DNA of 64,000 nt from a virus (lineage: Duplodnaviria > Heunggongvirae > Uroviricota > Caudoviricetes): positions 76,794 to 140,793 of IMG/VR virus record IMGVR_UViG_3300029850_000274. One strand, written 5' to 3'. Under the pieces are notes generated by a model. It was not told where the DNA came from. It worked only from the letters and a program-made list of their open reading frames with translations, and made no database searches. The position numbers were made by a program, and so were the translations under genes. The number at the start of each line of letters is the position of its first letter. Position 1 is the first letter of the stretch. This document shows, in pieces, positions 5,474-63,020 of this stretch.

Positions 5474-5722
5474 ATGAGTCGCAGAACGACTATGGAAGCA
5501 TTAGCGTGTCACATTGAACGAAAGTACAACACACTGTACTACACGGAAAATCCTCCGAACGCTGGAATTGATGATAGCTTACATGGTTACAAATACTTCT
5601 TATTATTCAAGAACACGTTCGGAATTTTTCGGAAGTATAGAACACAAGAAGAAGCAATTAACAGCATGACGGAAATTTTAAAAGAAGATCCGTCAGAATT
5701 ATTTAGTTACATAGCCAATTAA
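5474..5722 (+). CDS. hypothetical protein
   Basis: ORF. ATG sits after GTAGGTGGAAAGA, a variant of the repeated cassette. Confidence 0.45.
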   Translation: MSRRTTMEALACHIERKYNTLYYTENPPNAGIDDSLHGYKYFLLFKNTFGIFRKYRTQEEAINSMTEILKEDPSELFSYIAN

Positions 5723-5892
5723 AGGCTTTTACTACTCATGATGATATGAGTATACACCCTAACGGAAAGACTCGACTATTGAAGCTAATAGTTACTTTAA
5801 ATGAACGGAATGACTGTACTACTGGTTGATGGTAGTGACGTATTGGAACGGAAAAACGGTGGCGTATGGTAGATAAAAGAGTGCTTTTATCA

Positions 5893-5917
5893 GGCGGTTC
5901 AATTCCGCCCCTCGCCA
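5893..5917 (+). other. tRNA 3'-half-like element (T-arm plus 3' acceptor strand) without a matching 5' half
   Basis: GGCGG-TTCAATT-CCGCC forms a canonical T-stem and T-loop (TTCRANY). It is followed by CCTCGCC-A. No complementary GGCGAGG, D-arm or anticodon arm lies upstream within plausible distance. Confidence 0.3.
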
Positions 5918-6000
5918 CTTTTCACGATGGAAATTATCGTGTATAATATAAGAGAACTGTTAATATTTTAAAGTCCTGAATAGGCAGAAAGAAGGAAATT

Positions 6001-6480
6001 GTGTACGAGTTTAAAGAATTGATCTTGCCTGAACATTTTAGACACGCCTCATACGGAGGATTTTGTGTAAAACCTGGAATGTTTTATGGTGTAGAGAAAG
6101 AAACTGGAAAATTAGTTGCTACAACGGGCTGGAATGTAAATGGATTAACAAACATTTATATCCAACACGAGCCAAAGTCACAATGGAACAACGACTTATG
6201 GGAAGATCTTTACGATGATTATGGAAAACCTTTAATCACGATTGAAGAGAATGACTTGAAACGGATTAGTGATAAGGTTAAAGATTTTCAGAAGTCGGCA
6301 ATGGATTTTGAAACGTGGGCAGACGAAAACGGATATGATGAAGAATATTGTGAAGATCTTACTAGAGAAGAACTAGATCAGATAGAAGAATCTTATGAAT
6401 ATTATTACTTTATGGAATATCCTGAGTTTGTAATTCAGCTTTTAAAAGAACGTTGGGATTTAGAAAATTATGAAGAATAG
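6001..6480 (+). CDS. hypothetical acidic protein (159 aa), GTG start
   Basis: ORF. AGAAGGAAATT precedes the GTG. Confidence 0.45.
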   Translation: MYEFKELILPEHFRHASYGGFCVKPGMFYGVEKETGKLVATTGWNVNGLTNIYIQHEPKSQWNNDLWEDLYDDYGKPLITIEENDLKRISDKVKDFQKSAMDFETWADENGYDEEYCEDLTREELDQIEESYEYYYFMEYPEFVIQLLKERWDLENYEE

Positions 6481-9858: not shown

Positions 9859-9893
9859 ATACAAATTTTTACATAAGAAAGGTGGAATTGATT

Positions 9894-11246
9894 ATGAATC
9901 TAAACGAAATGGAAATCCCTTGCGATCCAATTTTGGACAAAGAAAAGAGGGATGAGTTGGTGCAGAACACAGAACTTTTAAAACAGGTTACAATCAAGCC
10001 GATCCCGTGGCTTCCTGGACGAGATTATATTACTACGGAACAGGTGGCACGATTCTTTGATGGAGATGTTGATGAAGTCAAGAGGTTGTGTACGAAGTAT
10101 CGTAAAGAGTTTTTAGCAGATGGAATGGAAGTTAAGACAGTGCAGGAGATCATTGATGGTCAGGACGCAACAGCAGAAAAACAGAAGGGAAGAATCATGG
10201 TAACGTATCCGAACGGATTAAATATCTCATTCGGTTACAAGGGTGCTAAGGTGTTTACTCTTAAATGTTTGATCAGATTGTCTTTACTGATGGAAACTTC
10301 AAGCCTTGCTGAGAACGTAAGACATTATGTTTTTATTAACGATTATATCACGATAGAAGAGCAGAGAGAACAAGAACAGGTAGAGGCAGGCGTTAAACTT
10401 GTTGATACAACGGAAATTTTAGGCAGACGAATTGACTTATACAGAAGCATTGAAGATCCGTTATTCTTAGCAAGAGATGTTGCAGAATGGATTGATTACA
10501 GCAAACGTCCTGATGGCAGTTATAAAACAGATATGATGTTACAGGCGATTGATTCAGAGGAAAAATATAAGACCAAAATCTTAACCGCCAATAATGTTGG
10601 CGGGTCAAATTTAGGTCAGATTGATTCTACGGGAAAGACTATTAATCCATTTTGGTTTCTGACAGAAGATGGACTCTATGAAGTATGTATGCAATCACGT
10701 AAGCCGATTGCAAAGCAGATGAAGAAACAGATTAAAGAATATCTTAAAAACATCCGTAAGACAGGCGGTGCAGTTGACTTTGGGAAAGAGTCACAGTTCA
10801 TTGAACACTACTTCCCGTCATTTTCTGAGGATGTCAAGCTTGCTATGGTAACCGATCTGCGAACACAAAATAAAGAACTTAAAGAAGAGAATCAGAAGTT
10901 GCAGAATGATAACAAGTTATTAGCAGCGGAAATTTTAACATGGGATGATCGCAATAAGATGAACGCTGGGATTAGGAAGTTGGCTGCGGTAACAGGAACG
11001 CAATTCTCTGTTATGTGGAATGAGCTTTATAAGAACTTACAGTATAAATATCAGATTGATGTTAAGAAACGTGGAAAGAAACCATTTCTTCAGTGGATTC
11101 AAGAACATGAATGGGATAAGGTATTGAAAGTCTTTTGTGCAATGTGCGAGGCTAGAAACCTATCTCCAACAGATATGTTCCAACAGACGGCACCTGTGGA
11201 AAATTTATATGATAATGAAGATGAGGATGATGAAGTATGGAATTAG
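9894..11246 (+). CDS. phage anti-repressor-like protein with Bro-N-like domain (about 450 aa)
   Basis: Central region ARDVAEWIDYS...FLTEDGLYEVCMQSRKPIAKQMKKQIKEYLKNIRKTG follows the Bro-N pattern (fvakDVa..L.y...E.GLY.L...S..p.A..F..W....L..IRKtG). ATG at 9894 after AAAGGTGGAATTGATT. Confidence 0.5.
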   Translation: MNLNEMEIPCDPILDKEKRDELVQNTELLKQVTIKPIPWLPGRDYITTEQVARFFDGDVDEVKRLCTKYRKEFLADGMEVKTVQEIIDGQDATAEKQKGRIMVTYPNGLNISFGYKGAKVFTLKCLIRLSLLMETSSLAENVRHYVFINDYITIEEQREQEQVEAGVKLVDTTEILGRRIDLYRSIEDPLFLARDVAEWIDYSKRPDGSYKTDMMLQAIDSEEKYKTKILTANNVGGSNLGQIDSTGKTINPFWFLTEDGLYEVCMQSRKPIAKQMKKQIKEYLKNIRKTGGAVDFGKESQFIEHYFPSFSEDVKLAMVTDLRTQNKELKEENQKLQNDNKLLAAEILTWDDRNKMNAGIRKLAAVTGTQFSVMWNELYKNLQYKYQIDVKKRGKKPFLQWIQEHEWDKVLKVFCAMCEARNLSPTDMFQQTAPVENLYDNEDEDDEVWN

Positions 11247-11795: not shown

Positions 11796-12890
11796 ATGAA
11801 CCTACAGTTAGTAAAAACGGAAAATTTTAACGATATAGCGTGTGATTTTTATAGTGCTGAGGATCAGTTGTGGATGAGCAGACAACAGATTGGGCTTGCA
11901 TTAGAATATAAAGATCCTAGAGTCGCCATTGCAAAAATTCACGATGCTAATAAAGAAAGACTAGATAGAGATTCAGTTGTTACCAAATTGGAAACAACTG
12001 ATGGAAAATCTTATTCTAGTTATATCTATAATGAACGTGGCATTTATGAAATTTGTAGAAGAAGTAGACAACCCAAGGCTGATGCCTTTATGGATTGGGT
12101 ATGGGATGTGATTGGAGCTTATCGTCATGGAAATTTAAGAACAGGAACTCCCGTAACAACAGTGGAGCAATTTCTTACAGAACAGACAGAACTTATGAGG
12201 CAGATGGAAAGAAACAATGAACGCCTATACAATGTTACTATCAAAGGTTTCAATCAGTTGGCGGACATTGTAAAAGAGATGAAAACCGAACGAAAAGAAC
12301 TATATAAGCAGATCGGTAAACCTACGAAAGATATTCCAGTAGTAGATACTGAAAGTGTTATTGCAGAATACAAACTTAACGAATGGAAATCCAACGTATA
12401 TTCTATCATTAATGATATTCTAAAAGAATCTGATGAATTAGGAACTACTACGAGAGATATTCTAAAAGAAGTATACAGGTATCTCACTAACACATATGGA
12501 ATTGTGTGGGAACAGGATCGAAAAGAATACAAAGAGAAGTATAATATTGGAGAAAGAGGTAATGTTCCAACAATTGACCTTTGCTATGATAAATACCCTG
12601 ATCTGCTAGTTAATTCATTGGAAAAACTTCTGCGACAGTTCAGAAAAGAAAATGCACAGCCTGATTGGGAAGAAATGAAGATCAAGATTACCAATTATGC
12701 TAATCATATTGGAAATAAGTCTAAAGGTGGAACGTCTGTTTATCGGAAAATCTACACTAAGATGACAGAGAATGGAGTTAACTGGGATGAATATGCTCAT
12801 GGGTTGTCTAAATCTCAGCTTATTCAAACTAATGCAACTTTGTACAACAGATTTTACGAAGCAGCGGTGGAAATTATTTCAGAAGAATAG
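11796..12890 (+). CDS. BRO-N domain anti-repressor-like protein (364 aa)
   Basis: N-terminus FNDIACDFYSAEDQLWMSRQQIGLALEYKDPRVAIAKIHDANKERL ... ERGIYEICRRSRQPKADAFMDWVWDVI matches Bro-N (PF02498-like). RBS AAAGGAAGATGAAGA. Confidence 0.65.
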   Translation: MNLQLVKTENFNDIACDFYSAEDQLWMSRQQIGLALEYKDPRVAIAKIHDANKERLDRDSVVTKLETTDGKSYSSYIYNERGIYEICRRSRQPKADAFMDWVWDVIGAYRHGNLRTGTPVTTVEQFLTEQTELMRQMERNNERLYNVTIKGFNQLADIVKEMKTERKELYKQIGKPTKDIPVVDTESVIAEYKLNEWKSNVYSIINDILKESDELGTTTRDILKEVYRYLTNTYGIVWEQDRKEYKEKYNIGERGNVPTIDLCYDKYPDLLVNSLEKLLRQFRKENAQPDWEEMKIKITNYANHIGNKSKGGTSVYRKIYTKMTENGVNWDEYAHGLSKSQLIQTNATLYNRFYEAAVEIISEE

Positions 12891-24014: not shown

Positions 24015-26084
24015 ATGTGTACGCCAATGAATGAAAACTGGAGCAATTTTTTAAACAAATTGTCAGAGCGTTTAAATAAAATGCTCGATTATGTAGAGAA
24101 AAACAATTCTACATTGTATGAAACCGATATTGATAAAGATGAACTTTGGGAAGTATATCTGAGTAGTTTCCCCGAAGGAACTAACAAGATGTATCGCAAG
24201 CGAAGAGAATACGATTGTGGTCATTGCCGAAACTTTATTAAAACAATCGGTGGAGCTGTGGCAATTGTTGACGGCAAGATTCATACAATCTGGGAGATCG
24301 ACACAGATGATGTAGTATTTCAGCCAGTAGTTGATGCCTTAAGAACATATGTCGAATCAAAGCCGATCAAAGATATTTGGAGACATTTTACAAATACAGT
24401 TGGTACAAAAACCACAAATGAGTATACAGAAGATAAGCAGATTATCAAATGGACTCATATGTATACACCGATTCCAGAGAGGTTATTGGAAAGGAAATCT
24501 GATATTCCTACAATTAAAGCAAAAGTGAGAGATCGAAAGAATGTGTTTAAAAGATCACTTGATGAAATTACAGAAGAAGCTGTTGATACAGTATTAGAAC
24601 TGATTGCTTCAAATACTCTTTATAGAGGACAGGAATGGGAAAGAGTATTAAAAGATTTTAGAAAATATCAGCGAGAATACAACGGTTTGTCAGATGAAGA
24701 AAAAGATACATACACATGGACAAAAGCCATGACGATCGGAGATGTAATTGGTCGTATTAGAAACCATAGTATCGGTACATTACTTGTGAATATCAGCGAA
24801 GGTATGGATTTAGATAATGCAGTAAAAGCTTATGAAAATGTTGTAGCTCCTGCGAATTACAAACGACCAAAGGCAATTTTTACTAAGAAAATGCTTGAGG
24901 ATGCAAAGAAAACTGTAACGGATTTAGGATATATGGATTCATTGCAGCGTAGATTTGCAAGACTTGATGATATTACAGTAAACAATATTCTGTTTTGTAA
25001 TCGTGATGCAGCACCACGTATTCAGGGTGGCTTAGATATTTTTGATGAGATGAGTAAGGAAGTCGCTGTAAATCCTAAGAAATTCTCTAAAGTAGAAGAG
25101 ATCAGTGCAGAGAAATTTGTATCAGATGTTCTTCCAACCGCAAAAGAATTAGAAGTCTTGTTTGAAAATCGACATAAGAAGAACATGGTTTCACTGATCG
25201 CACCTGTAAACAAAGATGCCAAGAACATGATGAAGTGGAGCAATCCTTTCAGTTGGGCATATTCAGGAAATATGACAGATAGCGAGATGAAAGAACGAGT
25301 TAAGAACGCAGGCGGAGCAGTTGATGGTGTCTTAAGATTTTCAATCCAGTGGAACGCAGGAAAAGATTGGAACAGAGATGACTTTGACGCACATTGTAAA
25401 ACACCTTGTCAGCATATTTTCTTTAGTCATATGTTTGATTCTGGAACACGAGGCAGACTTGATGTTGATGTGATTAATCCAGTAAAGGGGAAACCTGCTG
25501 TAGAAAATATTACATGGGCGGATAAATCCAAGATGGTTGATGGAGATTATGAATTTTTCGTACACAATTATTGCCATAGCAACGGTACATCAGGATTTAC
25601 AGCAGAGATTGAATTTGATGGTCAGATTTATGAATTTGAATACGATCAGCCTTTGCGACAGGGACAAAACGTGCCAGTGGCTACAGTTACATTAAAAGAT
25701 GGAGTATTCACAATCAAAGAGAAACTTCCATCTACAACATCTTCAAGAGAAATCTGGGGTGTCAATACAAATCAGTTTGTGCCAGTAACAGTAATGTGTT
25801 ATTCGCCTAACTATTGGGATGAACAGACAGGTATTGGACACAAACATTATCTGTTCATGTTAAACGGATGTGTAAATGAAGATACTCCAAATGGATTCTT
25901 CAATGAGTTCTTGAAACAGGAATTAGTACAGCACAAGAGAGTATTCGAGGCTTTAGGAAGTAAGATGCATGTCGCAGATGATCAAAACCAGTTATCAGGA
26001 ATTGGTTTCAGTTCTACAAAACGAGATGATGTGATCGTTAAAGTCAAGGGTGCAACAGAAAGAGTTCTTAAAATTAAATTTTAA
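24015..26084 (+). CDS. hypothetical large protein (689 aa)
   Basis: ORF with AAAAGGAGATAAATT before the ATG. No recognisable motif. Confidence 0.55.
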   Translation: MCTPMNENWSNFLNKLSERLNKMLDYVEKNNSTLYETDIDKDELWEVYLSSFPEGTNKMYRKRREYDCGHCRNFIKTIGGAVAIVDGKIHTIWEIDTDDVVFQPVVDALRTYVESKPIKDIWRHFTNTVGTKTTNEYTEDKQIIKWTHMYTPIPERLLERKSDIPTIKAKVRDRKNVFKRSLDEITEEAVDTVLELIASNTLYRGQEWERVLKDFRKYQREYNGLSDEEKDTYTWTKAMTIGDVIGRIRNHSIGTLLVNISEGMDLDNAVKAYENVVAPANYKRPKAIFTKKMLEDAKKTVTDLGYMDSLQRRFARLDDITVNNILFCNRDAAPRIQGGLDIFDEMSKEVAVNPKKFSKVEEISAEKFVSDVLPTAKELEVLFENRHKKNMVSLIAPVNKDAKNMMKWSNPFSWAYSGNMTDSEMKERVKNAGGAVDGVLRFSIQWNAGKDWNRDDFDAHCKTPCQHIFFSHMFDSGTRGRLDVDVINPVKGKPAVENITWADKSKMVDGDYEFFVHNYCHSNGTSGFTAEIEFDGQIYEFEYDQPLRQGQNVPVATVTLKDGVFTIKEKLPSTTSSREIWGVNTNQFVPVTVMCYSPNYWDEQTGIGHKHYLFMLNGCVNEDTPNGFFNEFLKQELVQHKRVFEALGSKMHVADDQNQLSGIGFSSTKRDDVIVKVKGATERVLKIKF

Positions 26085-26104: not shown

Positions 26105-26494
26105 ATGACAACAGAAAAGTTATTCGAAATGGCAACAAGAAGCAAATTGAGATTCCCATCAACAAAGGGAGAATTATCCGTAGAAGATTTATGGGATTTA
26201 TCTGATAAAGATTTAGACGTGGTTTATAAAAATCTGAAAGATCAGGAAGTTAAATCTTCAGAAGAAAGTCTGTTGGATGATGCAAATGTTGATCCAAAAT
26301 TAACGGCTGCGATTGGTATTGTGAAGTATATCTTTACAACAAAACGTAATGAGAGACTTGCCGAGAAGGAACGTATTAATAAGAAACTTACACAGAGAAA
26401 ATATATTGATGCTCTTTCCAAGAAACAGGATGAGGCTATTGAGAATATGTCAGAAGCAGAATTACGTGCAATGATTGATTCGTTAGAAGATTAA
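26105..26494 (+). CDS. hypothetical protein (129 aa)
   Basis: ORF with AAAAGGAGATTAAATT before the ATG (near-copy of the preceding gene's initiation region). Confidence 0.5.
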   Translation: MTTEKLFEMATRSKLRFPSTKGELSVEDLWDLSDKDLDVVYKNLKDQEVKSSEESLLDDANVDPKLTAAIGIVKYIFTTKRNERLAEKERINKKLTQRKYIDALSKKQDEAIENMSEAELRAMIDSLED

Positions 26495-26551: not shown

Positions 26552-27019
26552 ATGATTTATAAATTAGAATTAGGCGATTGGTCGGAAGATGGGCATAAAA
26601 TATCAGAAAGTTTTTTATTTGATTGTAACTATGATATTCATAAAATTCGACAAGCGTATAAAGACAGTTGTAAAAAGCTAGGAGTAGCTTTTAATTACAA
26701 TGAAGATTATACGGGTCTAGGTCTTGGTTATAGAAGTGAGAGACTGATTTGGACAGAGTATCAAGAATCAGAAATGAGCGAAACAGCATTTGAAATTTTA
26801 AATAATTCTGGGTGTTTTAAAGAGGTTGATTTCTATAAAGAAGATGGCGTGTATTATATCGAAGAAAGGAAAGACTGTGCAAAACTTATTATGAATTTTA
26901 TCGCACTGTCTATGCCTAAAGATTTTCGATATAAGCTTGTCCAAGAGCCAAAAGTTGAATCGATTAATAGTTGGAATCATGAACTGAGACAGCACTTTGG
27001 GTATGGATTATTTGATTAA
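26552..27019 (+). CDS. hypothetical protein (155 aa)
   Basis: ORF with AAAGAAAGGAGA RBS. Confidence 0.5.
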   Translation: MIYKLELGDWSEDGHKISESFLFDCNYDIHKIRQAYKDSCKKLGVAFNYNEDYTGLGLGYRSERLIWTEYQESEMSETAFEILNNSGCFKEVDFYKEDGVYYIEERKDCAKLIMNFIALSMPKDFRYKLVQEPKVESINSWNHELRQHFGYGLFD

Positions 27020-27050: not shown

Positions 27051-27647
27051 ATGGACGTTAATAAATTATTGGTTGTCGTCGATATGCAGAATGATTTCAT
27101 CGACGGAAGCCTTGGGACCAAAGAAGCACAGGAAATTGTTCCCAAAGTAATTGAGAAAATTAAAAATTTTGATGGCATTATTGTTGCAACAATGGACACA
27201 CACGATGAAAATTATTTATCTATACAGGAAGGAAAGAATCTTCCAGTAAAGCATTGCATCTGCGGAGAAGATGGATGGCATTTAAATGAAGAAGTTAGAA
27301 AGGCATTATTATCGTCAGAGATGTTTTGTCGCAATGACAAGCAAGAAAATGCTATTTGGCTTCTTGAGAACTATTGTAAAGAAACATTTGGGTCATTAGA
27401 ACTTATGGACGATTGTTCTGATGAATTCGGTGAAGATGGTCGGTCTCATCCAGAAGATGTTGAAATTACCTTAATTGGTCTTTGTACAGATATTTGTGTA
27501 ATCTCAAATGCAATGTTGTTAAAAGCAGCGTTACCAGAAGCAAAGATTGTCGTAGATGCATCTTGTTGTGCGGGTGTAACACCAGAGAGTCACAAGAACG
27601 CACTCGAAGCAATGAAGATGTGTCAAATTGAAATAATTAATGAATAA
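27051..27647 (+). CDS. isochorismatase-family cysteine hydrolase, nicotinamidase (PncA)-like
   Basis: LLVVVDMQNDFIDG (nicotinamidase-type VDxQNDF), metal/His region ATMDTHDENY, catalytic Cys context LIGLCTDICV. Confidence 0.6.
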   Translation: MDVNKLLVVVDMQNDFIDGSLGTKEAQEIVPKVIEKIKNFDGIIVATMDTHDENYLSIQEGKNLPVKHCICGEDGWHLNEEVRKALLSSEMFCRNDKQENAIWLLENYCKETFGSLELMDDCSDEFGEDGRSHPEDVEITLIGLCTDICVISNAMLLKAALPEAKIVVDASCCAGVTPESHKNALEAMKMCQIEIINE

Positions 27648-27662
27648 AGGGGGTGATAAAGC

Positions 27663-28499
27663 ATGATTAGTATTAATGGAGTCCCAGTTGTTCCAGAATC
27701 TTTTCCAGATGGAACGCAAAAAATTGATTTTTCGTTAGGTGTGATATCTCAAGAAATCATAGAAAACAAGACAGTGTATATCACATGGTTATATGAGTCA
27801 GATAAAGAGTTGTTTTCCTTGTTGTGTATTTCTAAAAATATTAAAGAACATTTTCCGTGGTTACAACAAGCATTAGTGATGCCGTATATACCAAATGCAA
27901 GATTTGACAGAGTAAAAGAGCCAAGCGAATGCTTTACATTAAAATATTTTGCAGAAATTATTAATAGTCTTGGATTTATAAGAGTTATTGTAACTGATCC
28001 ACATTCCGATGTATCTACTGCATTGATTGATCATGTAGAAGTAATCCGTGGAGCATCATATATTACACAAACTTGTAGCAAAGTCGTTAAAGCAGAACCA
28101 TCAAGAAATCTTGTAATTTATTTCCCAGATAGCGGATCACTAAAAAGATATTCTGAATTTGTATCAGATGATTATCCGATTGTCTATGGAATTAAAAATC
28201 GTGATTGGAAGACAGGAGAAATTCTTGGTATTGAGATTCATGGAGATACAGATAAATTAGACGAAAATACGGCAATCCTTATGATTGATGATATTTGTAG
28301 TAAGGGTGGCACATTCTATTATGGATCAAAAGAATTAAACAAATACGGTTGTAAAGATATGTATTTATATGTTAGTCACTGTGAAAATACAATTCTTGAT
28401 GGAGAATTATTAAAGAAAGATAGTTTGTTTAAAAAAGTGTATACGACACGTAGTATTTTTACAAAAGAACATGAGAAAGTTGAGGTGTTAGATTTATGA
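27663..28499 (+). CDS. ribose-phosphate pyrophosphokinase (Prs)-like type-I PRTase; candidate ADPR-pyrophosphate synthetase (Adps-like)
   Basis: PRPP-binding loop LMIDDICSKGGTF (DD..D.GGT). Two-PRT-domain length (278 aa). Four-base overlap with the NAMPT-like gene. Confidence 0.6.
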   Translation: MISINGVPVVPESFPDGTQKIDFSLGVISQEIIENKTVYITWLYESDKELFSLLCISKNIKEHFPWLQQALVMPYIPNARFDRVKEPSECFTLKYFAEIINSLGFIRVIVTDPHSDVSTALIDHVEVIRGASYITQTCSKVVKAEPSRNLVIYFPDSGSLKRYSEFVSDDYPIVYGIKNRDWKTGEILGIEIHGDTDKLDENTAILMIDDICSKGGTFYYGSKELNKYGCKDMYLYVSHCENTILDGELLKKDSLFKKVYTTRSIFTKEHEKVEVLDL

Positions 28500-29965
28500 A
28501 ACAAACAAATCCAATGTTATTAATTGATTTTTATAAAGCAGTTCATGCTGAAATGTTACCAAAAGGTATTACAAAATCTGTTTCTTATTTTACTCCACGT
28601 ATGAGCAGAGTAAAACGATGGAATGAAGTAGCCATGTTTGGATTACAAGGATTCATTAAAGAGTATTTGGTCGATTATTTTAATGAGTATTTTTTCTTTG
28701 AATATAGAAACAAAGCAATTGGTACTTATAAGACAGTAATGGATGCAACTCTTGGAGAAGGTACATATGGATTACAGAAAATCGAAGATTTATATGATCT
28801 TGGCTATCTTCCAATTGAGATTAAGGCTCTTCCTGAAGGAACTTTAGTACCAATGCATGTGCCGATGTTTAGTATTGAGAATACACATAAAGATTTTGCA
28901 TGGTTGCCACAGGCATTAGAAAGCTTAATTTCCGCAGAAATGTGGCATCCGATGATCGCTGCAACTGTCGGGCATACATATAGACAGATCGTTAATAAGT
29001 TTTATGAAATGACTTGCGATGACAATGCCGTAAAAGCTAGAGCATTAGGAGCTTTTGATTTTCGTGGAGAAGAGTGTTTACAGTCTGCGGTTAAAGCAGG
29101 GGCAGGATGGTGTTTATCATTCTTAAATACAGCTACGGTTCCAACAATTCCATATTTAGAGAGAAATTATAATTGTGATTGTACGAAAGAACCAGTTGCT
29201 TTTGGTAGCCCGTCTACTGAGCATTCGGTTGCGTGTAGTAATTATGCGATTGACGGAGATGAAGAGACTCTGATTAAAAGATTACTTACAGAGATTTATC
29301 CAAACACAAGCTTCTCCGCAGTATTGGATTCATATGATTATTGGAACGTTGTAGAGAATATTCTTCCAAAACTCAAGAATGAGATCATGAATCACAATGG
29401 ATGTTTTCTTGTAAGAGGAGATTCAGGAGATTGTGTAGATGTAGTAACCAGAACGGTATTCAAGTTATGGGAAGAATTTGGCGGAACTACGAATAGTAAA
29501 GGATACAAAGTATTAGATCCTCATATAAAAGCAATTTACGGAGATTCAATTACAGTGCAGAGATGTGAGCAGATTTATGACATCTTAGAGAAAAATGGAT
29601 TCGCAGCAAGCAATGTTGCACTTGGCGTTGGATCATTCTCATTCCAGTGCATCGAAGAAGATGGAATTTTAAAACCATTTACAAGAGATACATTTAGCAG
29701 TTGTATTAAAGCAACGTATTGTGAGATTGATGGTAAACCATATCCAATTTTTAAGAATCCAAAAGATGGCGGATTTAAGAAATCTCAGAGAGGTTTATGT
29801 CATGTCTATAAAGGATCAGACGGTAAATTGACATTTAAAGATGGATATACTTCAGAAAATCTTCCAATGAATAATCTGCTTGAGACAGTATTTAGAGATG
29901 GCAAATTGGTAAAGGAACAGTCATTACAGGAAATTAGGAGAGTTTTAAACGAAGGAGAATTTTAA
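28496..29965 (+). CDS. nicotinamide phosphoribosyltransferase (NAMPT/NadV)-like; candidate Namat-like NAD+ reconstitution enzyme
   Basis: N-terminus NPMLLIDFYKAVHAEMLPKGITKSVSYFTPR parallels NAMPT NPILL.DSYK.tHy.qyP....v.SYfe.R. VRGDSGD motif. 489 aa, which is NAMPT-sized rather than PncB-sized. Confidence 0.65.
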   Translation: MKQTNPMLLIDFYKAVHAEMLPKGITKSVSYFTPRMSRVKRWNEVAMFGLQGFIKEYLVDYFNEYFFFEYRNKAIGTYKTVMDATLGEGTYGLQKIEDLYDLGYLPIEIKALPEGTLVPMHVPMFSIENTHKDFAWLPQALESLISAEMWHPMIAATVGHTYRQIVNKFYEMTCDDNAVKARALGAFDFRGEECLQSAVKAGAGWCLSFLNTATVPTIPYLERNYNCDCTKEPVAFGSPSTEHSVACSNYAIDGDEETLIKRLLTEIYPNTSFSAVLDSYDYWNVVENILPKLKNEIMNHNGCFLVRGDSGDCVDVVTRTVFKLWEEFGGTTNSKGYKVLDPHIKAIYGDSITVQRCEQIYDILEKNGFAASNVALGVGSFSFQCIEEDGILKPFTRDTFSSCIKATYCEIDGKPYPIFKNPKDGGFKKSQRGLCHVYKGSDGKLTFKDGYTSENLPMNNLLETVFRDGKLVKEQSLQEIRRVLNEGEF

Positions 29966-30375
29966 TGGATTTTTACTTAGATAAAGACCATTGCTATCAG
30001 CGACTTGAAGATGAATTTAAGAAATATGGAAAATTAATTTTCTGTGTAGATTTTGATGATACATTATATGATTTTCACAAAGTTGGTAGAACTTATGACG
30101 ATGTGATGAATTTGCTTCGAGAATGGGAAGATTATTCTGAAGTGATTATTCTGACAGGTAATGGATCAGACAAATATGATATGATCGCAAATTATTTACA
30201 GAATCATAAGATTAAATACAAAGGTATCAACTGTGACAGTTCAATTCCCGTAGGCGGTCGCAAGGCATATGCAAATGTATATATTGATGACAGAGGTGGC
30301 TTGCCTTTAGTCTATAAACACTTAAAAATACTTATTTCAAGAATTAAGAGAGGAGATATAAAACATGAGTTTTAA
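29965..30375 (+). CDS. small HAD-superfamily phosphatase-like protein (136 aa)
   Basis: HAD motif I VDFDDTLYD (DxDxT). Overlaps both neighbours, consistent with translational coupling inside the NAD island. Confidence 0.45.
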   Translation: MDFYLDKDHCYQRLEDEFKKYGKLIFCVDFDDTLYDFHKVGRTYDDVMNLLREWEDYSEVIILTGNGSDKYDMIANYLQNHKIKYKGINCDSSIPVGGRKAYANVYIDDRGGLPLVYKHLKILISRIKRGDIKHEF

Positions 30376-31135
30376 TGCAGTAGAAACCAAAGACAGATTA
30401 GTGCAGTGGATCAAAGATTGGTTTGAAATTAATGGTAAAGGATGCAATTCCATTGTAGGAATTTCAGGAGGTAAAGATTCATCAGTTGTCGCTGCCTTAT
30501 GTGTCGAAGCACTAGGTAAAGATCAAGTTATTGGTGTTATGATGCCACAGGGAGATCAGTCAGACATTGAATATTCAAGAATGTTATGTGATCACTTAAG
30601 AATTGATAACTATACGGTTAATATCTACGAGCCATGTTTAAGTATCAAGCATGAAGTATCAAGCGTATTAAATGGTAAATGGAGTAAACAGAGTGCCACA
30701 AATTTACCTGCTCGTATCCGAATGGCTACATTGTATGCTTTTGCACAGAGTATGAATGGAAGAGTAGCAAATACATGTAATTTATCTGAAGATTGGGTCG
30801 GATATGCAACAAGATATGGAGATTCAGCCGGAGATTTTAGTCCATTAAGTGATCTAACTGTGACAGAAGTTAAAGCAATTGGTAGAGTTCTGGGACTTCC
30901 AACAGAGTTAATCGAAAAAACTCCTACTGATGGGTTATGTGGCAAGACAGATGAAGATAATCTTGGATTTACATACGAAGTGTTGGATGAATATATCAGA
31001 ACAGGTGAATGCAAGGATAAAGCAGTGAGACAGATCATTGATGAAATGCATGAGAAGAATGTATTTAAACTTGCTCCAATGCCTAAATTTATATCTGGCA
31101 TGTGGATCGAGGCAGGAATGGAGTTGGATGATTAA
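30365..31135 (+). CDS. nadE: NH3-dependent NAD+ synthetase
   Basis: PP-loop ATP pyrophosphatase motif IVGISGGKDSSVVAAL (SGGxDS). 256 aa. Confidence 0.7.
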   Translation: MSFNAVETKDRLVQWIKDWFEINGKGCNSIVGISGGKDSSVVAALCVEALGKDQVIGVMMPQGDQSDIEYSRMLCDHLRIDNYTVNIYEPCLSIKHEVSSVLNGKWSKQSATNLPARIRMATLYAFAQSMNGRVANTCNLSEDWVGYATRYGDSAGDFSPLSDLTVTEVKAIGRVLGLPTELIEKTPTDGLCGKTDEDNLGFTYEVLDEYIRTGECKDKAVRQIIDEMHEKNVFKLAPMPKFISGMWIEAGMELDD

Positions 31136-31137
31136 AC

Positions 31138-31470
31138 ATGAAAGTTAAAGCAAAATGGGCAGGTCGTGGTTTTGCACTCTGTATTGGGGAATGGAAGCTT
31201 TATGTTGATGGCAAAGATGCTACAGATAAGATTCCAGAAGACTTACGCACAGAATCTATGAATACATATAAAAAATATGAACGATGGTATTTTAAGGGTT
31301 GGGACGTAGAATGGGAATCATATTATGACGGACTAAAGCAAGATGAATGGATTGAGTCTAATAAATATTGGTTAGATGAAATCACAACAGATATTGAAAT
31401 TCAACGTCAAATTTTCAAAGCAATTAATGAACAAGATTTTCGCCATAACTCATGTGGTGGGTGTATTTAG
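31138..31470 (+). CDS. hypothetical protein (110 aa) ending in ...NSCGGCI
   Basis: ORF starts 3 nt after the nadE stop. Confidence 0.45.
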   Translation: MKVKAKWAGRGFALCIGEWKLYVDGKDATDKIPEDLRTESMNTYKKYERWYFKGWDVEWESYYDGLKQDEWIESNKYWLDEITTDIEIQRQIFKAINEQDFRHNSCGGCI

Positions 31471-31564: not shown

Positions 31565-32440
31565 ATGTTGATGTTTTTATTTAGAGGATTATTATTGATT
31601 GGTACTGCCGTACTGATTGGAGTTGGATGCTATGATTTTCAGGAAGAAAATTTTAAGCCATTCAAAAAAATGTTATATGCTTTAATCCCATTCGTATTAT
31701 GGGTACTTACATTATGTATTGTATATGTACCGTCTAATAACGTAGGAATTCGTTGGTCAGCATTCAGTGGAACTAGCAGCAAGACATTAAATGAAGGAAT
31801 TACATTCAAGAGTCCAATTGATAAGGTATTTCTTATTCCAACTACTGTAGAAGAGAGATCAATTAAGAATGTAAATGTTCAGACCAAAGATGCACAGTTT
31901 GTAAAAGCTGAGGTAAATGTCAAGTTTCGTGTTAACCAGAAAGATGCATTTAAGGTATACAAGAGATACACAACACTTGACAACTTAAAGCAGAATATTA
32001 TTAGCAACTATGCCCAGAAGAGTATTGAAACAGTAGTTACTCAGTACAATGTGATTGATACTCTTGGGGCTAAGAAAAATGAGATTTATTCTTTAGCTAC
32101 AAAAGATTTACAGAACATGCTTAAAGATGAAGGTGTCGAGCTTGTGCAGCTGACTATTAAAGATATGAACGCAGGAGACGAAATTGAGAAAGCGATCGCT
32201 GATGAAGCAGTCGCTAAGAAACGTGTAGAAACAGCAGAGCAGAATCGTCTTAAAGCAAAGAAAGATGCTGAGACTAAGGTAGTTAATGCTAAAGCAGAGG
32301 CTGATGCAAATAAAATCTTAGAGAAACAGCTAACAAACAAAATCTTAATTCAGCAGTGGATTGAAAAATGGAACGGAGAGGTTCCTAAAGTATCTGGTGA
32401 TAGCAAGTCTATGATCAATATTCAGGATTTGATGAAATAA
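31565..32440 (+). CDS. SPFH/band-7 (prohibitin/flotillin-like) membrane protein
   Basis: N-terminal TM helix, then SPFH-like core (GIRWSAFSG...KDAQFVKAEVNVKFRV) and an Ala/Lys-rich coiled-coil tail. Confidence 0.55.
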   Translation: MLMFLFRGLLLIGTAVLIGVGCYDFQEENFKPFKKMLYALIPFVLWVLTLCIVYVPSNNVGIRWSAFSGTSSKTLNEGITFKSPIDKVFLIPTTVEERSIKNVNVQTKDAQFVKAEVNVKFRVNQKDAFKVYKRYTTLDNLKQNIISNYAQKSIETVVTQYNVIDTLGAKKNEIYSLATKDLQNMLKDEGVELVQLTIKDMNAGDEIEKAIADEAVAKKRVETAEQNRLKAKKDAETKVVNAKAEADANKILEKQLTNKILIQQWIEKWNGEVPKVSGDSKSMINIQDLMK

Positions 32441-40146: not shown

Positions 40147-40663
40147 TGAACAGCGAAAGCTGATTGAAGATAATTATTCTTTAATTTGGCATTTGCACGA
40201 AGAGTATTTTACAAAGTTTACAGATTTTGATACATATATGGATCTTGGTCGTATGGCGATTTGCAAAGCGGCATTAAAATGGGACGAGTCTAAAGGAGCT
40301 TTTGGTACATATCTCTTCTGGGTATTACGTTCAGAAGTGAATCAATATTATACAAAATGGCACAGACCAACAGAAAAAATGAATAGGAATGCTGAATCGT
40401 TAGATACGCCATTGGCAGGATATGAACCAGAAGATGATATTACAATCGGAACAACACTGATGAGTGGGGATAACGTAGAAGATGAGGTACTTACAAAGGT
40501 ACATTTTCAAAATGAGTTTGATAAATTGGCACCGAGAAATAAAAAGATTATTGTTTTAAAACAGAAAGGTTTAACACAAAGACAAATTGCAAATCAACTT
40601 GGAATCACTCATCAGTGGGTTAGTCAAAATATTGTACAGTTTAAGAAAGCATTATGTGGTTAA
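40130..40663 (+). CDS. sigma-70 family RNA polymerase sigma factor (small, group 4/5-like), copy 1
   Basis: Region-2-like MDLGRMAICKAALKWDESKGAFGTYLFWVLRSEV and region-4 HTH LTQRQIANQLGITHQWVSQNI. Paralogous to 46422..46964. Confidence 0.6.
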   Translation: MKKLNDEQRKLIEDNYSLIWHLHEEYFTKFTDFDTYMDLGRMAICKAALKWDESKGAFGTYLFWVLRSEVNQYYTKWHRPTEKMNRNAESLDTPLAGYEPEDDITIGTTLMSGDNVEDEVLTKVHFQNEFDKLAPRNKKIIVLKQKGLTQRQIANQLGITHQWVSQNIVQFKKALCG

Positions 40664-40676
40664 GAGAGGTGAGACC

Positions 40677-41510
40677 ATGACAATTGAAGAAGTAAAGGAT
40701 TACATAAATTCGTCTACAGAGTATGACTTTTTGCGAGATTATCCGCACAAAATCGCTTTTCTCACGTTAGGTGGAAGTTATGCCTACGGAACAAACACAG
40801 AGGATTCTGACATTGATTTACGTGGTGTTTTTCTTAGTGATAAAAGAGAGATTTTGTTGAATAATAATCCAAATAATCTTGAAAAGACAGACGATCATAA
40901 AGATGTTGATACTGTGTTACATTCGCATATTAAGATGATCAATATGCTTGCAAAGGGTAATCCTACGTTTTTAGAGCTGTTATATTTTGCACCAGACCGC
41001 TATTTATATATATCTGATATTGGTATGGAACTGATCAAAAATAGAGATATGTTTTTATCTAAGAGAGTTTATCATGCATATAAAGGATATATATGTGATT
41101 GCCTGACTCGAACGAGTTTTAAGTATTATAAAAATAAAGATTCAGAGAAAGAAAAGCAAAAGGCGGAACGATACGCTAATAAATCAATGATGCACGCAGT
41201 TCGATTATTGTTACAGGGTATTGAATTATTACATAACGGAACAATGTTTGGATCTATGGATGACATAGGAAAAGATCTTGTAAAGATCAAAGAAGGGTAC
41301 AATAGTACGCATAAAACATATAGATTTGGCAAACACAATGAGCATACAGAATATTTCCCAAATCAGTCATACGATGTTTTTATTGAAGGATTACTTTATC
41401 AATTTGATTATGATTATATGAATACTGATTTGCCAGACGAACCAGACTGGGATCGTATCAATAACTTCTTGATGACAACAAATGAACGAATTGTGAGAGG
41501 AATGGTGTAA
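40677..41510 (+). CDS. Pol-beta-superfamily nucleotidyltransferase (KNTase / RlaP-like minimal NTase fold plus helical C-domain)
   Basis: LTLGGSYAYGTNTEDSDIDLRGVF matches the GS...DxD nucleotidyltransferase signature. ATG 40677 follows AAGAGAGGTGAGACC. Confidence 0.55.
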   Translation: MTIEEVKDYINSSTEYDFLRDYPHKIAFLTLGGSYAYGTNTEDSDIDLRGVFLSDKREILLNNNPNNLEKTDDHKDVDTVLHSHIKMINMLAKGNPTFLELLYFAPDRYLYISDIGMELIKNRDMFLSKRVYHAYKGYICDCLTRTSFKYYKNKDSEKEKQKAERYANKSMMHAVRLLLQGIELLHNGTMFGSMDDIGKDLVKIKEGYNSTHKTYRFGKHNEHTEYFPNQSYDVFIEGLLYQFDYDYMNTDLPDEPDWDRINNFLMTTNERIVRGMV

Positions 41511-61034: not shown

Positions 61035-63020
61035 ATGAAAACTGAATATGTGAAAGAAATGAATGTCTTGATCGACAGAATCAATGATGCTTCATATGCG
61101 TATTACGCAGAGGATAATCCGATCATTTCAGATAAAGAATTTGACGATTTATGCGCTGCTTTAGAACGACTTGAGAGAGATTCTGGCGTTGTTTTGAATA
61201 ATTCGCCCATCCACCACGTTCAAGGATTTATAATTGATTCTCTTGCTAAAGTAAAGCATACACGCCCAATGTTATCAGCTCAGAAGACGAAGGATGTCAA
61301 TGAGGTCAAAAAATTTCTTGCGGATAAAATTGGTGTTTTATCGTGGAAAGAAGATGGTCTCAGTATTGTTCTCAGATACGAAAATGGACGCTTAAAACAA
61401 GCAATTACAAGGGGAAATGGCGAAATCGGTGAGGATGTCACTCACACGATGAAAATGGTACGAAATGTTCCACAGTCAATCCCTGAAAAGCGTTATCTTG
61501 AAATTCGTGGTGAAGCAGTTATTGGATATGATGATTTTGCTAAGATTAATGAAAAATTACATGGCAAATACAAAAATGCAAGAAATTTAGCAGCAGGTAC
61601 TGTTAGACAGTTAGACTCTAATGTGGCAAAAGACAGGAAGTTGGCTTACAAAGTATTTGAATTAGTCAAACTTGGAGACACACCTGAATCAGAAATGCCA
61701 AGCATTGCAGATAGCTTTAAATATCTTGCAGAACAAGGGTTTGATGTAGTAGAGCATCAGGTCGTTAACCGAGATAATGTTGAAGAGTATATGGCAACAT
61801 TTCAGCCAGAAGAATACAAATATCCTGTTGATGGTTTAATTATTTCCTACAACGATTATCAATATGGTAAATCGTTAGGAATGACGGGGCATCATCCATT
61901 ATCGTTGATCGCCTACAAATATAAAGATGACCTCTACGAAACAACAATCAGAGATATTGAATGGAATACATCTCGTACAGGGTTGATTAATCCAGTTGCA
62001 GTATTCGATCCAGTTGATCTTGATGGCGCAGAAACCACAAGAGCTACATTACATAATGTAAGTTACATTGAAGGGTTGGAACTTGGTGCAGGTGATACGA
62101 TTCAGGTTTATCGTAGTAATATGGTGATTCCAAAAGTACACGATAATCTGACAAGAAGCAATACATTCAAGATTCCAGATACTTGTCCAACCTGCGGTGG
62201 CGAAGCAAAAATCATCAATGAAAATGGTAGTAAAGTTTTAAAATGCATGAATCCTGACTGCAAGGCAAAACTATTAAGCAAGTTTGTGAACTTTGTTTCC
62301 AGAGATGCTATGAATATTCAAGGTTTATCTGAGGCAACACTGAAAAGATTTATTGATCTTGGATGGCTGAAAGATTATACAGATATTTATAATTTAGCAG
62401 AGCATAAATCTGAAATGAAGAACATTGATGGATTTGGTGCAAAAAGTGTTTCTTCCTTATTAAATAGCATCGAGGAAAGTCGCAGATGCAAACTGGTTAA
62501 TTTCGTAACAGCACTTGGTATTGAACTTGTCGGGAAGTCAACGGCAAAGGATATTTGCAAGCTTATTGATAAGATTTCTCTATCGAATAATGAAAATCCA
62601 TACGATGTATTTATTAAAAGAATCAAACAGAGAAAATATTTTGGACATATTGATGGTATTGGTATCAATACTTCATTGTCAATGGATGATTATTTCAAAG
62701 AAAATCTTGAAATGGTTGAGAAATTAGCCGAAGAACTTGAATTTGAAATGCCAGAAAGCAAGAAAGAATCTGCTGTTAACCTCACAGGAATGACTTTTGT
62801 TGTAACTGGTAAGGTAAATAAGTTTACCAATCGTAATGCCATTAAGGATGAGATTGAATCCAGAGGTGGGAAGGTTGCAGGATCAGTGTCAAAGAACACG
62901 AATTATCTTGTGAACAATGATGTGAATTCTACAAGTAGCAAGAATAAAAAGGCACAGCAATTAGGTATTCCAATTATTGACGAAGATGGACTGATCAAGA
63001 TTCTAAAAGGAGAAAATTGA
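61035..63020 (+). CDS. ligA: NAD+-dependent DNA ligase
   Basis: Adenylation motif SWKEDGLSIV (KxDG). Cys4 zinc finger CPTCGG...C..C. HhH region. C-terminal BRCT GMTFVVTGKVNKFTNRNAIKDEIESRGGKVAGSVSKNTNYLVNND. Confidence 0.8.
   Translation: MKTEYVKEMNVLIDRINDASYAYYAEDNPIISDKEFDDLCAALERLERDSGVVLNNSPIHHVQGFIIDSLAKVKHTRPMLSAQKTKDVNEVKKFLADKIGVLSWKEDGLSIVLRYENGRLKQAITRGNGEIGEDVTHTMKMVRNVPQSIPEKRYLEIRGEAVIGYDDFAKINEKLHGKYKNARNLAAGTVRQLDSNVAKDRKLAYKVFELVKLGDTPESEMPSIADSFKYLAEQGFDVVEHQVVNRDNVEEYMATFQPEEYKYPVDGLIISYNDYQYGKSLGMTGHHPLSLIAYKYKDDLYETTIRDIEWNTSRTGLINPVAVFDPVDLDGAETTRATLHNVSYIEGLELGAGDTIQVYRSNMVIPKVHDNLTRSNTFKIPDTCPTCGGEAKIINENGSKVLKCMNPDCKAKLLSKFVNFVSRDAMNIQGLSEATLKRFIDLGWLKDYTDIYNLAEHKSEMKNIDGFGAKSVSSLLNSIEESRRCKLVNFVTALGIELVGKSTAKDICKLIDKISLSNNENPYDVFIKRIKQRKYFGHIDGIGINTSLSMDDYFKENLEMVEKLAEELEFEMPESKKESAVNLTGMTFVVTGKVNKFTNRNAIKDEIESRGGKVAGSVSKNTNYLVNNDVNSTSSKNKKAQQLGIPIIDEDGLIKILKGEN

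Follow-up and report, generated by a model that had tools for sequence, protein, structure and literature searches.

A candidate nicotinate detour for NAD+ reconstitution encoded by a gut phage operon

NAD+ depletion is among the commonest bacterial anti-phage strategies, and the NAD+ reconstitution pathway NARP1 is, to our knowledge, the commonest known phage answer to it. In a 64-kb stretch of the IMG/VR virus record IMGVR_UViG_3300029850_000274 (hereafter the window, to whose plus strand all coordinates refer unless stated otherwise), five consecutive genes at 27051-31135 raise the question of why a phage should enclose a NARP1-like gene pair, together with a predicted phosphatase gene, between genes for a nicotinamidase and an NAD synthetase. 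NARP1 itself consists of the enzymes Adps and Namat (Osterman et al., bioRxiv 10.1101/2024.02.11.579819; structures in PMC12774641 and PMC13586617), and the literature that we searched yielded no paper combining it with NadE or a nicotinamidase. The answer that we favour, with somewhat better than even confidence, is that the operon encodes a deamidated variant of NARP1, in which NAD+ would be rebuilt through a previously undescribed detour via nicotinate.

The cassette starts with a PncA-like nicotinamidase of the isochorismatase fold (27051..27647, 198 amino acids (aa), PF00857), followed after a 15-base gap by an Adps-like pyrophosphokinase of the phosphoribosyl pyrophosphate synthetase (PRPS) fold (27663..28499, 278 aa, assigned by phrog_619 and Adps homology) and, over a 4-base overlap, by a Namat-family transferase with a remodelled pyridine-base pocket (28496..29965, 489 aa, assigned by phrog_448 and Namat homology). 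A 1-base overlap (TAATG) leads into a predicted capless phosphatase of the haloacid dehalogenase (HAD) superfamily (29965..30375, 136 aa, phrog_1238 and HAD motifs), and an 11-base overlap into the NH3-dependent NAD+ synthetase NadE (30365..31135, 256 aa, PF02540 and TIGR00552). A sequence-only reading of this DNA had listed these five open reading frames (ORFs) and the motifs VDMQNDF, LCTDICV, DDICSKGGT, NPMLLIDFYK, VRGDSGD, DFDDTL and SGGKDSS within them, and had taken them for a NARP1-type Adps/Namat pair extended by further NAD genes. All ORFs were recovered on the plus strand at identical coordinates, with every motif, and the interpretation is upheld by profile and sequence comparison, in which both central proteins are nearer to Adps and Namat than to PRPS and Nampt.

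The Adps-like protein belongs to phrog_619 (ribose-phosphate pyrophosphokinase-like, 225 bits). All NCBIfam models of PRPS score it below their cut-offs (TIGR01251 gives 88.8 bits, cut-off 113) and the best true PRPS in the Protein Data Bank (PDB) reaches only 51.8 bits, whereas SPbetaL1 Adps aligns over the full length at 36% identity (141 bits, E 3e-45) and the structurally characterised ICP1 Adps is 35% identical. The protein is co-linear with both of these enzymes, close to ICP1 Adps in length (278 and 280 aa), and the C-terminal extension of PRPS (the alpha11-alpha12 module) is missing. The ICP1 structure paper names the residues that handle ADP-ribose (ADPR) and ATP (PMC13586617). In the alignment to ICP1 Adps, F14, R80, H114, D156, K178, D209, D210 and F218 correspond to F18, R87, H121, D161, K185, D212, D213 and F221; C212 likewise aligns with its ICP1 counterpart, Y220 lies opposite F223, and F92 is replaced by Lys85, a position that is not conserved in SPbetaL1 Adps either. 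Judged by alignment, the protein has the structural attributes of an Adps, namely, the fold, the length, the acceptor residues, the catalytic Lys and the remodelled PP loop.

The transferase, a member of phrog_448 (NAPRTase/NAMPT_N, 530 bits), aligns with SPbetaL1 Namat (9w5x) at 389 bits and ~43% identity, compared with 175-178 bits for human NAMPT and 174 bits for 7yqo, a 'Pre-B cell enhancing factor related protein' that is presumably the Xanthomonas Nampt. It also matches the NCBIfam model NF006629, labelled 'nicotinate phosphoribosyltransferase', at 434 bits (cut-off 405). The catalytic core is kept (D11, Y13, F187, R190, H243, R307, D309, G349-D350 and T396-R397-D398, read against D13, Y15, F189, R192, the catalytic His, R306, D308, G360-D361 and R399 of SPbetaL1), and the residues from D11 to G349-D350 in this list, as well as R397, are invariant in the Namat alignment. 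By these comparisons validated Namat, and not true Nampt, is by far the nearer relative of the Nampt-like protein, just as Adps, and not PRPS, is that of the Prs-like protein.

The pyridine-base pocket of the transferase is different. In SPbetaL1 Namat, Asp215 hydrogen-bonds nicotinamide (PMC12774641), and the corresponding Asp219 of human NAMPT sets nicotinamide specificity, with the D219S substitution switching the enzyme to nicotinic acid (PMC7096376; PMC4919578, table 2). At this position the window protein has Ala213 (NTAT for GTDT), and the pocket is further changed by Ser240 (A242 in SPbetaL1), Asn211 and Gly185. Six out of six classical NARP1 Namats, taken from unrelated phages, have the Asp (SPbetaL1, ICP1, Staphylococcus SA3, Escherichia EC6, Pseudomonas JG004 and Mycobacterium Kahlid), and the homologue in the gut phage Phass-1 has Ala.

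Typing this residue across 306 loci, including those from a genome database, yielded 229 Ala/Ser, 74 Asp and 3 Glu enzymes, and the residue proved to be tightly linked to the neighbouring genes. Among 248 loci tallied for neighbours, NadE was found near 172 and PncA near 164 of the 173 Ala/Ser enzymes, compared with neither gene at any of 70 Asp loci. The association is kept across at least 50 clusters at 50% identity, and the genome-database loci follow the same pattern, with all 57 Ala-type loci conforming to it and no partner genes at the three Asp-type ones. The 120 matches listed in a homologue search with the window transferase all had at least 79% identity; the family-wide survey was made on representatives of 50%-identity clusters, the nearest 150 of which comprise 96 Asp, 34 Ala, 16 Ser, 1 Val and 1 Glu enzymes, with 2 not covering the position. 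An unsupervised comparison of 56 Ala/Ser with 109 Asp sequences returned SPbetaL1 positions 215, 242, 187, 304, 213, 240 and 239 as the best-separating columns, position 242 being Ser in 55/56 sequences of the former group and Ala in 109/109 of the latter. The published nicotinamide-pocket residues of SPbetaL1 Namat are F189, D215, A242 and R306 (PMC12774641). Because the separating columns all lie at or beside these residues, the difference between the two groups is concentrated in the base pocket. The deamidated branch that the sequence-only reading had offered as one option (nicotinamide to nicotinate, then nicotinic acid adenine dinucleotide (NaAD) and amidation by NadE) thereby gains specific support, from the lost Asp and from its linkage to PncA and NadE over hundreds of loci. 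A third state of the specificity residue occurs in the crAss-like phages cr126_1 (locus L312, 5319-6830, minus strand) and DAC15 (locus L313, 2976-4499, plus strand), whose Namats have Glu at the Asp215 position (GSET), keep Ala242 and are accompanied by neither PncA nor NadE.

Both flanking enzymes fit such a branch. The PncA-like protein matches PF00857 (E 5e-18), and its best solved relative is the PncA of Pyrococcus horikoshii (1ILW, 53.5 bits). The Asp/Lys/Cys triad, singled out beforehand as the test of this assignment, is present on alignment (D11/K110/C149) together with a metal site (D49/H51/H68), and D10/C133 and D52/H54/H71 of the P. horikoshii enzyme match window triad and metal-site residues. 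Across 158-159 distinct homologues there is no variation at D11, D49, H51, H68 and C149, and 149/159 have K110. The protein is therefore a probable PncA by its active-site residues and best PDB relative, not by the curated model, the full-length NCBIfam equivalog NF008623, which gives only 31.9 bits (cut-off 174). NadE matches PF02540 (185.5 bits, E 1e-54) and TIGR00552 (190 bits, cut-off 63.65), contains the SGGKDS PP-loop and, at 256 aa, has no CN_hydrolase domain, the make-up of the single-domain, ammonia-dependent type.

PncA frees one NH3 per nicotinamide and NadE uses one, and NadE requires the deamidated dinucleotide, NaAD. We detected no HxGH-type adenylyltransferase motif in any ORF of the window, and an adenylyltransferase-like ORF lies near only one of the 229 Ala/Ser loci, which is bacterial. 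Therefore, the four enzymes other than the phosphatase close a route from ADPR and nicotinamide to NAD+ only if NaAD is made directly. If the ribosyl donor is ADPR pyrophosphate (ADPR-PP), they close the path; if it is phosphoribosyl pyrophosphate (PRPP), the host adenylyltransferase NadD is required.

From the observed gene content, homologies, catalytic residues, pocket substitutions, co-occurrence and slot exchange (see below), we infer the substrates, the products and the counter-defence role as follows. An immune NADase would split NAD+ into ADPR and nicotinamide. PncA would convert nicotinamide to nicotinate and NH3, and Adps would convert ADPR and ATP to ADPR-PP and AMP. The Namat paralogue would then join nicotinate to ADPR-PP, directly yielding NaAD and pyrophosphate, a reaction that we do not know from NAD biochemistry, and the ammonia-dependent NadE would use ATP and NH3 to turn NaAD into NAD+. 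The HAD protein would act as a separate, exchangeable adaptor, converting a phosphorylated, non-canonical ADPR product into ADPR for the Adps step, in parallel to the Macro-domain phosphatase Adpp of the extended pathway NARP1-AP.

The grouping of these genes is not due to chance, because a four-gene core recurs, in two gene orders, across 134 non-redundant viral cassettes and at least 50 genome-database loci. Megablast of the island against GenBank phages gave no DNA-level match, and the nearest records at protein level are phage contigs from human faeces that carry no annotation; the identical five-gene order is found in the complete gut phage Phass-1. Hundreds of relatives are present in IMG/VR, on contigs of 140-170 kb that come from human gut samples. 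The module is thus not the unusual arrangement that it had first been taken for, being common in human-gut phages of ~140-170 kb and having NrtR-regulated counterparts in chromosomes of Clostridia. In the genome database, the transferase is 70-79% identical to genes of Lachnospiraceae and other Clostridia, and on the strength of this resemblance the phage very probably infects gut bacteria of the class Clostridia.

The HAD gene, initially seen as a fixed member of a five-gene island, turned out to be interchangeable, occupying a slot between Namat and NadE that holds different cargos in different phages. Scoring the slot in the 134 viral cassettes, we found a Macro domain protein of 150-170 aa in 66, Macro plus NADAR in 14, the HAD protein in 22, nothing in 22, and other content in 10 (NADAR alone, RlaP-like or unidentified). 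Counting the NADAR-accompanied ones, Macro is present in 80/134 cassettes; HAD and Macro co-occur in none of the 134, and the window contains no Macro homologue. Where both are present, the NADAR-domain protein (PF08719, 95.6 bits) is encoded after Macro, for example, at 5589-6002 in locus L129 and 5583-5999 in locus L147. Slot content differs between phages whose Namats are 96-98% identical, and the slot is empty in relatives at 96-97% identity. The exchange is exact, keeping the TAATG overlap at the 5' junction (window 29961-29967) and GAGAGGAGATATAAAACATG at the 3' junction (30349-30367), with both junctions identical across near-identical phages, among them loci L013, L009 and L004, whether the cargo is HAD, Macro or none. 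What is preserved at the 3' junction is the ribosome-binding stretch before NadE, which in the window is part of the HAD coding sequence. The Macro proteins of the slot form a phage family annotated in some GenBank records as Poa1p-like ADP-ribose 1''-phosphate phosphatase, and this family is presumably the Adpp family of NARP1-AP.

The 136-aa HAD protein matches no Pfam family and belongs to phrog_1238 (E 2e-19). It has the Rossmannoid fold and motifs I (DxDxT), II (T/S), III (K) and IV (DD) of the superfamily. Two other identities were considered and rejected: the 'phosphoheptose isomerase' of the PHROG and RefSeq labels, given the HAD phosphatase motifs and fold and the lack of an SIS domain, and an exported phosphatase of nicotinamide mononucleotide (NMN) resembling class C acid phosphatases, given that no signal peptide is present in the window protein or its megaphage homologue. 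Other phage NAD gene clusters contain homologues with 31-36% identity. These are found inside Asp-type NARP1 operons of Bacillus phages of the Bastillevirinae (Adps-Namat-HAD in BPS13), inside crAss-like operons with overlapping ORFs (Namat-HAD-Adps in cr126_1 and DAC15), in a Lak megaphage beside an Adps-like gene, and in an NAD island of a 735-kb uncultured phage (LR756501.1, 420000-435000; locus L311, 3002-11475, minus strand). The last island encodes a PncB-type NAPRTase, NadE, a TonB-dependent receptor, HAD, PnuC, a NadR-like kinase/adenylyltransferase and an isochorismatase, with neither Adps nor Namat. In Bacillus phages, no phage name is common to the listed HAD carriers and the 37 listed Macro carriers, in a partial listing that leaves out 3 of 40 Macro records and about a dozen of 54 HAD records. 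Because its homologues lie in Asp-type NARP1 operons and other phage NAD clusters, the HAD family is an accessory that recurs with NARP1 and is not tied to the deamidated branch. We found no mention of the family in the NARP1 papers and supplements searched, nor of the terms HAD, haloacid or phosphoheptose in the NARP1-AP paper or the four supplementary files searched with it. By analogy with the Macro cargo, the HAD protein may do an Adpp-like job although it is not of the Adpp family; our best guess, held with low confidence, is that its substrate is a phosphorylated ADPR derivative and its product ADPR.

Is the operon a dedicated counter-defence, or has the phage borrowed a housekeeping pathway? 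The bacterial counterparts bear on this question. An NrtR-family regulator lies beside PncA-Adps-Namat(Ala)-NadE in 38/61 genome-database loci, including one in the complete Mogibacterium pumilum chromosome, whose neighbours do not look phage-derived; NrtR was found at none of the viral loci. NrtR is a repressor that ADPR releases from DNA and that controls prs-nadV operons (PMC2330246). In bacterial cassettes (locus L275, 7672-9624 and 9893-10804; locus L303, 4551-9446; locus L307) the regulator, a Nudix plus winged helix protein, stands at the end. A glutamine-dependent NadE, of 650 aa in some bacterial cassettes, occurs in 6 genome-database loci, and locus L307 also encodes NADAR, PnuC and an NMNAT-like protein. 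In a neighbour-joining tree, the viral sequences are intermingled with the bacterial ones, which points to repeated exchange between the two. The phage also encodes an NAD-dependent DNA ligase (61035-63020, plus strand; phrog_3869, 615 bits), an NAD+-consuming replication enzyme of its own, so that it has a direct interest in the NAD+ pool. Supplying this ligase, which had been put forward as an explanation of the island, stands as a possible purpose and is not a rival mechanism. It is accordingly conceivable, if on balance doubtful, that the same chemistry serves as housekeeping recycling of ADPR and nicotinamide, acquired from a Clostridia host and used to provide NAD+ for replication, in particular for the ligase, and not as dedicated counter-defence. 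This account, compatible with our mechanism, fits the NrtR-linked loci, the interleaved tree and the ligase, but is less easily reconciled with the loss of NrtR from the phage copies, with the gain of the phage slot, which mostly holds the Adpp-like Macro phosphatase, and with the rapid cargo exchange between 96-98% identical phages, which suggests arms-race selection. The only demonstrated role of the Adpp phosphatase is in overcoming the aRES defence (10.64898/2026.01.28.702374). In the phages, then, slot cargo and rapid exchange favour counter-defence, and the NrtR-linked copies favour housekeeping recycling in bacteria. The ADPR-centred setting as a whole, with Macro and NADAR in the slot and NrtR in bacteria, speaks for the direct NaAD route.

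In the adenine clamp of the transferase, the residues R38 (R40 in SPbetaL1, the stacking residue of the loop), F381 and TRD are kept. The clamp-helix motif reads GSFSFQC-IEEDGILKP-FTRD, in which positions 1-6 fit GS-X-phi-X-phi-X-phi-TRD, position 7 is Cys385 instead of an aromatic residue, unless its role has shifted to Phe395, and a 9-aa insertion (385-393) precedes the conserved Phe-TRD; a P-[F/Y] directly before TRD is conserved. The retained Arg38, GS-F-S-F-Q and TRD would agree with ADPR-PP as the donor. The insertion is present in most Ala/Ser-type enzymes and absent from Phass-1 and ~9 other Ala/Ser clusters; we considered it as the determinant of nicotinate use and rejected it on account of these exceptions.

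Several points weigh against a deamidated NARP1. Essentially all Ala/Ser enzymes fall into a single clade, from which Phass-1 branches deeply, so that their association with PncA and NadE dates to one or two ancient events and has not arisen many times over. The Ala alone is no proof of nicotinate use, as D219A is listed among the loss-of-activity mutants of human NAMPT (PMC4919578). The benefit that would repay the extra ATP of the deamidated detour is unaccounted for, and the case for the HAD protein is positional only. The 9-aa insertion and the lost aromatic at position 7 could alter the preference for ADPR-PP. Bacteria, those bearing the operon included, are expected to encode the essential NadD, so that a route through PRPP and nicotinic acid mononucleotide (NaMN) is feasible in bacterial carriers. 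Finally, validated Namat still uses PRPP in vitro (PMC12774641).

The last three points also sustain the main rival, a PRPP-based salvage of the Preiss-Handler type, in which the Prs-like protein would make PRPP, the transferase would form NaMN from nicotinate fed by PncA, host NadD would convert NaMN to NaAD, and the phage NadE would complete NAD+. The pocket changes argue for nicotinate yet are silent on the ribosyl donor, the insertion lies in the SCH clamp of the window enzyme itself, the NF006629 match exceeds its cut-off, and prs-nadV operons were long interpreted in this way (PMC2330246). We nevertheless consider this route unlikely. The Prs-like protein falls below the cut-off of every PRPS model and aligns over its full length to validated Adps, the transferase has the GS-F-S-F-Q clamp and Arg38 of Namat and not the GSGGG of Nampt, the neighbouring slot holds the ADPR-handling Macro and NADAR proteins, and in bacteria the cassette is linked to NrtR, which senses ADPR; moreover, a phage that encodes every other step would have to rely on the NadD of its host. 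The weakest alternative is that an ordinary nicotinamide-using NARP1 stands beside unrelated PncA and NadE genes that boost deamidating salvage by the host, the Asp-to-Ala change being neutral or compensated; clear Adps and Namat homology and the presence of NadE without Namat in cyanophages and Pelagibacter phage HTVC008M agree with it, but it is most improbable given that PncA and NadE are absent from all the tallied Asp loci and NadE went undetected at only one Ala/Ser locus, that several pocket positions co-vary, that 109/109 sequences in the Asp group have this residue, as does human NAMPT, whose D219A mutant is inactive (PMC4919578), and that PncA would consume the very nicotinamide that such a Namat needs.

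How does the deamidated NARP1 that we propose compare with known systems? It shares with classical NARP1 the adjacent, overlapping Adps-/Namat-like pair, the conserved catalytic core and most adenine-clamp residues, and differs from it in the replacement of Asp215 by Ala and of Ala242 by Ser, in the clamp-helix insertion, and in the flanking nicotinamidase and NAD synthetase, neither of which has a role in published NARP1. NARP1-AP combines NARP1 with the Macro-domain ADPR-1''-phosphate phosphatase Adpp (bioRxiv 10.64898/2026.01.28.702374) and, like the window operon, includes an extra phosphatase, with a Poa1p-like Macro in sister phages at the very position of HAD; the phosphatase of the window, however, has the HAD fold and is not a Poa1p-like Macro. 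NARP2 (Nampt and Nmnat) and NARP3 (PnuC and NadR) also restore NAD+ from phage-encoded enzymes, but both proceed via NMN and need an adenylyltransferase (PMC13464706), which the window lacks.

Among bacterial systems, the Preiss-Handler operon nrtR-pncA-pncB-nadD-nadE of Clostridium acetobutylicum (PMC2330246, table 1) likewise begins with PncA and ends with NadE, passing through the NaAD intermediate proposed here, and its linkage to NrtR resembles that of our bacterial copies. In the window operon, Adps and the Namat paralogue take the place of its PncB and NadD, and therefore the ribosyl-AMP part would come from ADPR and not from PRPP and ATP. Bacterial NARP1 is known from Paenibacillus foliorum (pfAdps/pfNamat), whose pfNamat is 71.9% identical to the Asp-type SPbetaL1 Namat (PMC12774641). 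This pair and the NrtR-regulated prs-nadV operons (PMC2330246) resemble our bacterial cassettes in the chromosomal Prs-like and NadV-like genes and in ADPR-responsive regulation, but, by the descriptions in these papers, consist of those two genes only, with no PncA or NadE.

If the proposal is correct, this would be a fourth NAD+ reconstitution pathway, running through nicotinate and NaAD and common to gut Clostridia, where it would be under NrtR control, and their phages. It would be recognisable by the replacement of Asp215 with Ala or Ser and of Ala242 with Ser, and by flanking genes for PncA and NadE, a signature by which hundreds of 'nicotinamide/nicotinate phosphoribosyltransferase' and 'ribose-phosphate pyrophosphokinase' labels in gut phages and Clostridia could change. 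The origin would be bacterial, tying phage counter-defence to a housekeeping recycling route of the host that is governed by an ADPR-sensing repressor. A second family of accessory phosphatases (HAD, in Bacillus, crAss-like, Lak and Clostridia phages) would hint at further non-canonical ways in which defences destroy NAD+, and would imply that a host defence making the phosphorylated product awaits identification. That all parts hold jointly, the Ala/Ser Namat being a nicotinate ADP-ribose transferase, the HAD protein a non-Macro phosphatase acting on an immune NAD+ product, and the slot exchange a sign of an ongoing arms race, is a tentative proposition to which we give slightly less than an even chance.

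The window is phage DNA, with genes for a DnaB-like helicase, RecJ, a 1077-aa DNA polymerase and Ant-like anti-repressors, the large genes all being co-directional. There are two anti-repressors (9882-11246 and 11796-12890, plus strand), and proteins identical to the Namat-like one are also encoded on contigs as long as 431-514 kb; together, these observations hint at a temperate or host-associated lifestyle. Scans of 23.5-33.5 kb for promoters and terminators returned fewer sites than shuffled controls, and no operon boundaries were set; a tRNA scan of the 64-kb window found none. The cassette is flanked by four conserved proteins with function-less labels, at 24015-26084 (phrog_1735, 689 aa), 26105-26494, 26552-27019 and 31138-31470 (all on the plus strand; the other three families are phrog_2018, phrog_20092 and phrog_20678). 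They are syntenic within the phage lineage of the window and, because they are absent from Phass-1 and from the bacterial copies, probably lie outside the module.

Two further genes recur near such cassettes. An RlaP-like nucleotidyltransferase of the RNA-repair type is encoded at 40587-41510 (plus strand), and a homologue fills the slot between Namat and NadE in one relative (locus L148, 4755-5522) and lies at most 6 kb from the cassette in ~45 others. An SPFH/Band 7 protein (31565-32440, plus strand) is encoded two genes downstream of the cassette, and in cr126_1 an SPFH protein (locus L312, 3116-3907, minus strand) likewise lies two genes after the Namat-HAD-Adps operon; the two proteins share ~20% identity (E 2e-4), and their common position may be a coincidence.

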